Below the pieces are notes generated by a model. It made no database searches. It saw nothing but the letters and a program-made list of their open reading frames with translations, and was not told the DNA's origin. Both the position numbers and the translations under genes were made by a program. Shown piece by piece: positions 2,306-3,015 of a stretch of 33,046 nucleotides of DNA. The DNA comes from Escherichia coli (GTDB lineage Bacteria > Pseudomonadota > Gammaproteobacteria > Enterobacterales > Enterobacteriaceae), in assembly GCF_003334815.1 (NCBI RefSeq), contig NZ_QOWO01000041.1. One strand, written 5' to 3'. Numbering within the stretch: position 1 is the stretch's first letter; each line of letters starts with the position of its first letter.

Positions 2306-2390
2306 CAACTTACTCCACAAAAATCAGACCAGAACGCCAATTACAAGCAAAAATCAATAAAACAGTATTAGTTGATTGTTATCTCTGACT

Positions 2391-2528
2391 TCATACTCCT
2401 GCTCCTGTCAGGGTTTTGGCGTAATTCCTCAGTATTCGGTAATCGGTCAAAACAGAACTGGGGAAACGATATAAGCGCAGGCGCATCCAGCGGTGGCGAA
2501 GAAGTTCTGCCATATTAAACTCAAACAT
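2391..2528 (-). CDS. Small ORF (45 aa) between rusA and Q, YlcG-like by position
   Basis: ORF not in the supplied track (below its length cutoff). ATG at 2528-2526 overlaps the rusA stop (TGATG); reads [22 protein letters not shown].... Position matches DLP12 ylcG. Confidence 0.4.
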   Translation of the reverse strand: MFEFNMAELLRHRWMRLRLYRFPSSVLTDYRILRNYAKTLTGAGV

Positions 2529-2890
2529 CATTCATTCCCCATTTCGGTGATGGTCAGTTCCAGCCTCCCACCTTTGGTAACAGGCATCTTCACAACGCGG
2601 TAATCAACGACCTGAGCATCATCCAGCCAGAAACCTGCTTTAGTGAGTGCGTCAAAAGCGGCTTTTTGCAGATTATCCAGGTCACGGCGACGGCGATCCG
2701 GCATGTGGCACTCAATGCGGATTTTCACAGGGATAGCCAGGCCGATATCCAGCATTGCGTTTTTAATGATTCTGGCGACGTTATCGCGGTATGCCTGCCC
2801 CTCTGCGCTGACGTGCGTGCGCCCGCGATTATGGCGGTAATAGCGATTATTGCTCGGAGGCCAGGGTAATGTGATGCTGTAGGTATTCAC
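2528..2890 (-). CDS. rusA: RusA Holliday-junction resolvase (120 aa)
   Basis: [42 protein letters not shown]... recognised as lambdoid RusA. GTG start at 2890 overlaps the upstream ybcO-like stop (GTGA). Confidence 0.9.
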
Positions 2891-3015
2891 GCCTTAATAA
2901 TCCCCTCTTTCAGCCACATAACCTGTGTTTTCGCCATACCTTCCAGCGCGCATTCTTTTGCATATGCAGCATCGACTTGCTTGGCATGCCCTTTACCGGC
3001 AATCTTCTGTATGCG
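2887..3015 (-). pseudogene. ybcO-like (DUF1364) C-terminal remnant, interrupted by in-frame stops
   Basis: Frame ending ...[27 protein letters not shown] resembles the DLP12 YbcO C-terminus. Two TAG stops lie immediately upstream in this frame (3016-3024) and no N-terminal Cys/His motif is present. Confidence 0.35.

Follow-up and report, generated by a model that had tools for sequence, protein, structure and literature searches.

The closest described counterpart of the locus analysed here is phage lambda's ninR region, a "chain of interlinked genes" (Kroger & Hobom 1982) in which co-directional delayed-early genes, running from the replication genes to Q, are read from the pR transcript through overlapping stop and start codons, with the Q antiterminator gene downstream at the same genome position. 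Between lambda O and Q, 4-nt overlaps are found at 7 of the 11 junctions and some overlap at 10 of the 11. As established lambda biology has it, the nin operon is normally driven by the early promoters. Among E. coli gene pairs reading in one direction, 24% are spaced at −8 to +6 nt, with −4 nt the most frequent class (PMC10666635). For E. coli gene pairs, overlaps of this kind have been shown to couple translation strictly (PMC6728339), and the TeRe pairs (Huber et al. 2019, 2023) share with the present locus both the −4 nt overlap of the ATGA or GTGA type and a Shine-Dalgarno (SD) motif within the upstream gene's 3' end. In such a scheme, termination-reinitiation, a ribosome that ends one gene would restart directly at the next.

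Two further systems are closer in gene content. The cryptic prophage DLP12 of E. coli K-12 has the same genes in the same order, ybcO–rusA–ylcG–quuD, with the same GTGA overlap before rusA and ATGA overlap after it; there, ybcO is an intact gene of 96 codons that follows ninE and ybcN. K-12 rusA is quiescent, and an IS2 or IS10 element upstream activates its transcription (PMC1636454, PMC10956419, PMC2265524). Phage ev207 and the phages ev017, 2G7b, mEp332 and PhiR57_1 match the present locus at 96–98.7% nucleotide identity and have its arrangement, ninX–ninF'–'ybcO–rusA–ylcG–Q–porin, including a 64-codon open reading frame (ORF) upstream of rusA.

We analysed a stretch of 33,046 nucleotides of E. 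coli DNA (the window). Positions 1900..3250 are 99.9% identical to E. coli strain 52F4, and by the PGAP annotation of that strain the window carries a DLP12-like defective lambdoid prophage. Read 5' to 3' on the minus strand, this part consists of the end of ninX, the 64-codon ORF, the end of ybcO, rusA, ylcG, a spacer of 85 nt and quuD. It represents the distal part of a nin operon of the lambdoid kind, ninX–ninF'–'ybcO–rusA–ylcG–[85 nt]–quuD: the genes are of the nin type, lie on one strand and keep the order seen in SF-468 and ev207, where the series leads from the replication genes to Q (O–P–ren–ninB–methyltransferase–ninE–ninX–…–rusA–ylcG–Q), and the window retains the portion from ninX' to quuD. 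The Q-type antiterminator gene quuD (1922..2305, minus strand, 127 codons) was recognised from the ORF list, the 52F4 PGAP annotation and a match to PHROG 79 (E = 1e-52). It forms the end of the chain and is set apart from ylcG by the 85-nt spacer, so that there is no overlap here, whereas lambda has one at that place. Lambda also differs in carrying ninG (rap) and ninH/ninI in place of ybcO–rusA–ylcG, and in the window, unlike lambda, the chain has lost its link to the promoter and is broken at ybcO. The porin gene of the window's prophage is intact (ORF list, 52F4 PGAP annotation); its state differs from that of K-12 nmpC, which is interrupted by IS5. A search of positions 1..8000 for known RNA families found none.

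The loss of the promoter can be traced to a single joint at 3160/3161. Here a C-terminal remnant of ninX (3097..3160, minus strand; about 21 codons plus the stop), recognised by translation and by its match to ninX of SF-468 and of phages, is fused in mid-gene to the middle of the lambda exonuclease gene exo on the opposite strand, of which the C-terminal part remains (3158..3607, plus strand; a pseudogene in the 52F4 PGAP annotation and also present in the ORF list). Sequence that is contiguous in ev207 and in the fuller prophage of SF-468 is broken at this point. What is missing comprises everything from mid-ninX on, that is ninE, the methyltransferase gene, ninB, ren, P and O, all of which ev207 keeps along with ninX, and in addition the immunity region together with the genes of the pL operon up to mid-exo. 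When a 161-nt probe spanning the joint was split, its halves matched separately in thousands of genomes; together they occurred in 1 of 5426, which is 52F4. The large ninX/exo deletion has been seen in one genome only and is a modest addition to what is known of these prophages. Since the ninX-to-exo segment has been deleted, the early promoters are gone from the window.

The rusA gene itself (2528..2890, minus strand) is intact, with 120 codons, a GTG start and a TGA stop. It encodes a Holliday-junction resolvase that is identical at 119 of 120 positions to the K-12 enzyme of known structure (PDB 1Q8R, residues 1–120, full length) and scores 276.8 bits against NCBIfam NF007305 (cut-off 200). 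The start is unambiguous, because its frame is closed by a TAA two codons before the GTG, and the next methionine in that frame is not reached until codon 46. Overlapping stop and start codons had been described on both sides of this gene, and the sequence and the ORF list confirm them: a GTGA at 2887..2890 (minus strand), in which the TGA at 2889..2887 ends a frame that encodes, in its last 30 codons, the YbcO C-terminus, and an ATGA at 2528..2531 (minus strand), where the stop of rusA meets the start of ylcG.

Two adjacent overlaps would by themselves be unremarkable, because such overlaps are common in E. coli and also in this prophage, where 5 of the 14 co-directional junctions are 4-nt overlaps. 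Their significance rests on conservation and not on mere presence. We assembled 87 close rusA loci, which comprise that of the window, 80 from contigs in IMG/VR and 6 from annotated records, and both the GTGA and the ATGA are unchanged in 87 of 87; the GTGA is kept whether ybcO is intact (n = 69), reduced to a remnant (n = 17) or frameshifted (n = 1). At eight distant phage RusA loci, with 29–84% protein identity, the rusA start overlaps the upstream stop in every case, by 4 nt in seven and by 8 nt in one. At the background rate of 0.24, the chance of eight out of eight is about 1e-5 by our own arithmetic. For the genes upstream of rusA at these distant loci, the annotations read DUF1364, HNH nuclease, "recombination protein", HkbD, PAPS reductase, LexA-like protein and RecA-dependent nuclease; that of GZ7 is a hypothetical gene with a ybcO-like 3' end. 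Seven are differently annotated.

These data bear on the possibility that the overlaps play no part in expression at all, being by-products of genome compaction and of how readily ATGA and GTGA come about, while rusA and ylcG initiate independently, each at its own SD. Such a reading would fit with the SD-like sequence that precedes every start surveyed, with the rank of the 4-nt overlap as the commonest class genome-wide (PMC10666635), with the one uncoupled pair among 14 overlapping pairs tested (PMC6728339), and with phage 434B, in which ylcG has an annotated ribosome-binding site and no upstream gene. However, the overlap has been retained across seven differently annotated genes upstream of rusA and two upstream of ylcG, for which drift alone is insufficient. 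The SD cores of rusA homologues, moreover, often lie 9–14 nt away, the SD of ylcG in the window is weak, and there is experimental precedent for coupling at overlaps of this kind (PMC6728339). We therefore regard overlaps without any role in expression as unlikely. The preliminary description had called the layout the classic nin-region arrangement for translational coupling, and this is borne out both by the lambda junctions counted above and by the strict coupling reported for E. coli pairs (PMC6728339). The overlaps are a general property of nin regions, with nothing peculiar to rusA; because the layout is the textbook interlinked arrangement, long known, there is nothing new in the feature as such.

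What sets this allele apart is the state of the gene upstream of rusA. Of ybcO (DUF1364, a His-Me finger nuclease), no more than the last 30 codons remain (2887..2976, minus strand), corresponding to residues 67–96 of PDB 3g27, and homology to the K-12 type of ybcO ends at 2976. A complete YbcO/DUF1364 domain has about 96 residues and a Cys-rich N-terminal part. In 52F4 the remnant is annotated by PGAP as a DUF1364 pseudogene "missing N-terminus", and it has no match in NCBIfam. The frame that ends in the GTGA has an open stretch of 42 codons, which contains no start other than two ATGs, which would yield peptides of 16 and 10 codons and neither of which has a usable SD. The overlap is thus real as a GTGA, but the ybcO-like "gene" assigned to it in the preliminary description is not a gene here. 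In contrast to the TeRe pairs, the ybcO/rusA junction of the window has no translated upstream partner, and the GTGA in this allele is a fossil overlap. At the tenth codon before the GTGA, ATG is present in 11 of the 17 remnant loci and in 2 of the 69 intact ones, and ATC in 6 of the 17; we considered an ATC-to-ATG change here as a compensatory new start in remnant alleles. This ATG lacks a usable SD.

The broken ybcO is not a product of local decay. The same remnant junction is present in 17 of the 87 close rusA loci and in 584 of the 5426 complete genomes of E. coli. At 96–98.7% identity it also occurs in at least 27 phage genomes on deposit, some with propagation hosts listed, including ev017, ev207, 2G7b, mEp332, PhiR57_1 and Lambda_ev245. 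In SF-468 and ev207, it lies within the full O–P–ren–ninB–methyltransferase–ninE–ninX context. Because of this frequency in bacterial and phage genomes, the remnant must be counted as a normal phage allele: it is a ninF'–'ybcO recombination scar carried by viable phages. An old recombination would have fused the opening ~18 codons of ninF, out of frame, with the final 30 of ybcO, and it is because of this out-of-frame joining that the frame ending in the GTGA would have been left without a usable start. The segment in the middle of the scar (2977..3047) showed no significant similarity to lambda ninE–ninG, W24 ninE–ybcO, HK620, mEp554, GZ7 or ENT47670.

Reading across the scar is the 64-codon chimeric ORF (2910..3104, minus strand), which appears in the ORF list and by translation and is annotated in ev207. 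Its ATG overlaps the end of the ninX remnant by 8 nt and is preceded at 6 nt by a strong SD, AGGAGG (3111..3116, minus strand; anti-SD duplex −10.3 kcal/mol), identical in 16 loci. The first ~18 codons are NinF-like (MLSPSQSLQYLKGSIERA), the unassigned segment 2977..3047 follows, and the 3' part reads the ybcO remnant in a different frame, up to a TGA (2912..2910) that is found 19 nt before the GTG of rusA and immediately 5' of the SD-like AAGAGGGG. The RefSeq record of ev207 names the same ORF "protein ninF". NinF, however, has about 57 residues with a Cys-rich C-terminal two-thirds (in lambda, …CANCGQKLHVLEVHVCEHCC…), whereas here the likeness is confined to the first ~18 residues and the rest has no cysteine motif. 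The ORF has no NCBIfam match and one marginal match in PHROG (E = 0.0098). Because the NinF likeness ends after ~18 residues, the ev207 label derives from the N-terminus alone, and the name "protein ninF" in RefSeq phage records is probably mis-assigned to a chimeric ORF.

Among eight alleles of this ORF there are 7 variable sites, and all 7 are nonsynonymous in its frame; no protein-level constraint was seen in this comparison, which with eight alleles has low power. The ORF nevertheless stays open in 16 of the 17 loci that carry the remnant, with its AGGAGG perfect. It is conceivable, if a long shot, that the ORF is kept for being translated and not for its protein, acting as a ribosome bridge that would bring ribosomes to within 19 nt of rusA and shield the transcript from Rho-dependent polarity over rusA, ylcG and the essential Q.

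The way in which rusA is translated from this allele would depend first on its own signals. The SD-like GAGGGG (2902..2907, minus strand) lies 12–17 nt upstream of the GTG, with a predicted anti-SD duplex of −9.2 kcal/mol, and the sequence leading up to the start is GAGGGGAUU. The optimal spacing of an SD is usually about 5–9 nt, and the GAGG core, at 13 nt from the GTG, exceeds it. Together with the GTG start, this spacing suggests that the initiation signals of rusA itself are mediocre. Conservation of the GAGGGG is confounded, in that the same bases encode the C-terminus of YbcO (…LKEG…). The second source of ribosomes would be the chimeric ORF, on which ribosomes loaded at the strong ninF' SD would terminate 19 nt short of the GTG of rusA. 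In E. coli, reinitiation is variable at a stop-to-start distance of +14 nt and 80–100% is lost at +38 nt (PMC10666635); ribosomes ending the 64-codon ORF at +19 nt should therefore reinitiate poorly at rusA at best.

Judged from these features, coupling to the ybcO frame would have been lost, and rusA in this allele would initiate mainly de novo at its own mediocre site, possibly with some residual reinitiation. Its translation is probably less efficient than with an intact ybcO. The 19-nt gap, the GTG and the distant SD core could even mean that rusA translation is strongly reduced, in which case the translational argument may weigh more. We also considered the type of coupling in which translation of the upstream gene opens an RNA structure that hides the next start. 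Windows of 110 nt at both junctions, taken from the window's allele and from the intact-ybcO allele, were folded against shuffles; no structure hiding the rusA or ylcG start was found beyond that in the shuffles (z = 0.57, 1.08, −0.93), and this type of coupling was rejected, the junction folds being no more stable than shuffles.

The same features could be taken further, as the preliminary description did, to the view that rusA initiation strictly needs the ribosomes that terminate at the ybcO stop, so that truncation of ybcO abolishes translation and leaves rusA silent. The GTG start with its SD core 13 nt upstream, the universal conservation of the overlap, the 13 of 14 tested overlapping pairs that were strictly coupled (PMC6728339), and the collapse of coupling at about 20–38 nt (PMC10666635), with the nearest translated ORF ending 19 nt upstream, would all be consistent with it. 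However, the −9.2 kcal/mol duplex before rusA is not negligible, and the truncated allele is the one found in the 27 or more phage and 584 E. coli genomes counted above. In K-12, an intact ybcO of 96 codons with the same GTGA precedes rusA, and the gene is nevertheless quiescent. The broken ybcO is therefore not supported as the reason for silence, being neither required for it nor enough to account for it. The activation of K-12 rusA by upstream IS2 or IS10 is, moreover, described as transcriptional (PMC1636454, PMC2265524), and in the window the loss of the early region with its promoters would alone suffice for silence. Of the earlier claim, then, the loss of coupling to the ybcO frame probably stands and the account of silence does not; a strict dependence of rusA on ybcO-terminating ribosomes strikes us as quite improbable.

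Silence of rusA in this strain is best explained by a lack of transcription, with loss of coupling secondary at most. The deletion found in one genome has taken the ninX–exo segment and the early promoters with it, leaving no credible promoter upstream. A crude consensus scan gave 4 promoter-like sites where 3.2 were expected, no more than chance would give, and no plausible promoter on the strand of rusA in the sequence upstream of it. A promoter in the scar or in the region antisense to exo was considered and found no support, the nearby minus-strand sites lying inside rusA (2875..2846) or being weak (9/12). "Silent" should not be taken as absolute, because one paper reports that HusR (YnfL) increases the rusA-ylcG mRNA of K-12 in stationary phase (PMC12844172). 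Of the two HusR boxes published in that paper, the one inside rusA survives in the window with 1 mismatch (2772..2787, plus strand). The other, in the 5' part of K-12 ybcO, is absent from the window's allele.

On the other side of rusA, the small gene ylcG (2391..2531, minus strand) has an ATG start and 46 codons, and its product matches NCBIfam NF033498 (75.4 bits, cut-off 30) and PHROG 2705. Homologues were found by tblastn in 60 phage records, with identity down to 47%, in phages of Escherichia, Salmonella, Klebsiella and Enterobacter. Seven homologues spanning the full identity range were aligned; all seven are exactly 46 codons long, and M1, R12, R14, W15, L18, V27, D30, Y31, L34 and N36 are invariant among them, giving a core of R-x-R-W…L…V..DY..L.N. 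On a protein-guided alignment, pN/pS in the ylcG frame was 0.24–0.50 vs 0.8–2.1 in the other two frames for five of the seven pairs tested, the informative ones; these are diverged pairs in which synonymous sites are near saturation. Among close alleles, constraint on ylcG is weak (dN/dS 0.53 vs 0.12 for rusA). The ATGA also precedes ylcG in the phage 434, mEp237, GZ7, CobraSix and ST16-OXA48phi5.1 loci. In two of these phages, CobraSix of Enterobacter and ST16-OXA48phi5.1 of Klebsiella, it is ninG and not rusA that precedes ylcG, and the ATGA is retained; in both, the overlap between ylcG and the Q gene is an ATGA as well. An ATGA at each end of ylcG, with Q next in line, also occurs where rusA precedes it. 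By these comparisons ylcG is a real and conserved 46-codon gene. The preliminary description had taken the overlap as support for the reality of this ORF; that ATGA is kept behind ninG as well as behind rusA is further evidence, and the family matches, the fixed length and the pN/pS values are stronger evidence than the overlap.

The rusA/ylcG junction has the structure of a coupled pair, as the upstream gene is an intact ORF. The SD of ylcG is weak (GGGG, duplex −5.6 kcal/mol), and ylcG would most likely be fed by the ribosomes of rusA, the two genes forming an intact coupled pair. For the TeRe pairs strict coupling was measured, whereas for rusA and ylcG we infer coupling by likeness to them. 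A 2026 paper treats rusA-ylcG as a single operon (PMC12844172), and, citing Hemm et al. 2008, gives ylcG as induced in stationary phase. Set against the observed anatomy, conservation, allele frequencies and deletion, the reading that we find probable as a whole is that these are nin-region overlaps in which rusA would be coupled to ylcG, the ybcO-to-rusA overlap would be a fossil, and the silence of rusA in this strain would be transcriptional.

The additions made here are modest, namely a fossil GTGA beside a recombination scar that is common in viable phages and a chimeric "ninF" ORF that crosses the scar, and they matter little beyond annotation hygiene. A conserved ATGA or GTGA overlap can outlast the gene upstream of it, and should not be taken to prove translation of the frame before it. 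The RusA protein of the window is one residue off the K-12 structure protein. The allele that has neither the 5' two-thirds of ybcO nor one of the two HusR boxes is present in about one of every nine E. coli genomes, which is worth knowing where RusA expression from natural prophages is put to use, as a suppressor of ruv or in studies of HusR.

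In the Enterobacter phage CobraSix and Klebsiella phage ST16-OXA48phi5.1 loci, the place of rusA is taken by the other junction nuclease of lambdoid phages, ninG (rap), and the YlcG homologue follows it directly (positions 75..823 and 108..832 of the respective loci). The homologues behind ninG are 46 codons long every time, and the 4-nt overlaps on either side are unchanged. This suggests that the association of ylcG is with the order "junction resolvase then Q" and not with rusA specifically. In phage 434B, the ylcG-like gene has no rusA 5' of it, with lpxR found there instead on the opposite strand. 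The stretch …ggggaatgaATGA has nevertheless been kept (positions 680..704 of the 434B locus), identical to the final bases of rusA plus the overlap, and looks like a further remnant of the rusA/ylcG junction.

At the downstream end of ylcG, the stop codon lies within another ATGA (2394..2391, minus strand), which in the window opens only an 8-codon ORF (MKSEITIN, 2365..2394). At the equivalent point in mEp237, GZ7, CobraSix and ST16-OXA48phi5.1, the ATG of the Q gene overlaps the ylcG TGA. The window ATGA may be a second fossil overlap, left by exchange of the Q allele, or it may have arisen by chance, at about 1 in 16. On the other side of quuD, and convergent with it, is an intact OmpC/NmpC-type porin gene (591..1733, plus strand), and 3' of this gene comes a strong hairpin resembling a terminator (GGGGCGT…ACGCCCC with a T run, 1871..1888, plus strand). 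The K-12 counterpart of the porin gene, nmpC, is IS5-disrupted.

The annotated ybcO of phage PhiR5_1 (1515..1844 of its locus) has a frameshifted 3' end, and because of this it extends 44 nt into rusA and bypasses the GTGA stop. In phage D2, rusA is annotated from an internal ATG as a gene of 76 codons (1936..2163 of its locus), despite the presence of both the full-length GTG-started ORF and the GTGA. In the window, a 64-codon minus-strand ORF with a perfect AGGAGG (2910..3104) resembles NinF only over its first ~18 residues, the remainder reading the ybcO remnant out of frame. In the RefSeq records of phages ev207 and ev099 this ORF goes under the name "protein ninF", a label that seems to have been wrongly given to a chimera. 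Further upstream, at 3160/3161, is a clean deletion joint from mid-ninX (minus strand) to mid-exo (plus strand), with zero overlap between the two alignments that meet there. The entire immunity, replication and nin-proximal region is missing through this deletion, which was found in only one of 5426 complete E. coli genomes, that of strain 52F4.

The HusR (YnfL) boxes published for "rusA-ylcG" (PMC12844172) map in the K-12 locus to 2324..2339 and 2675..2690. Neither is in an intergenic promoter; one lies within the 5' part of ybcO and the other within the rusA coding region, 103-118 nt past its start. Since the window allele retains only the intragenic rusA box (2772..2787, one mismatch), the ybcO alleles may differ in HusR control.
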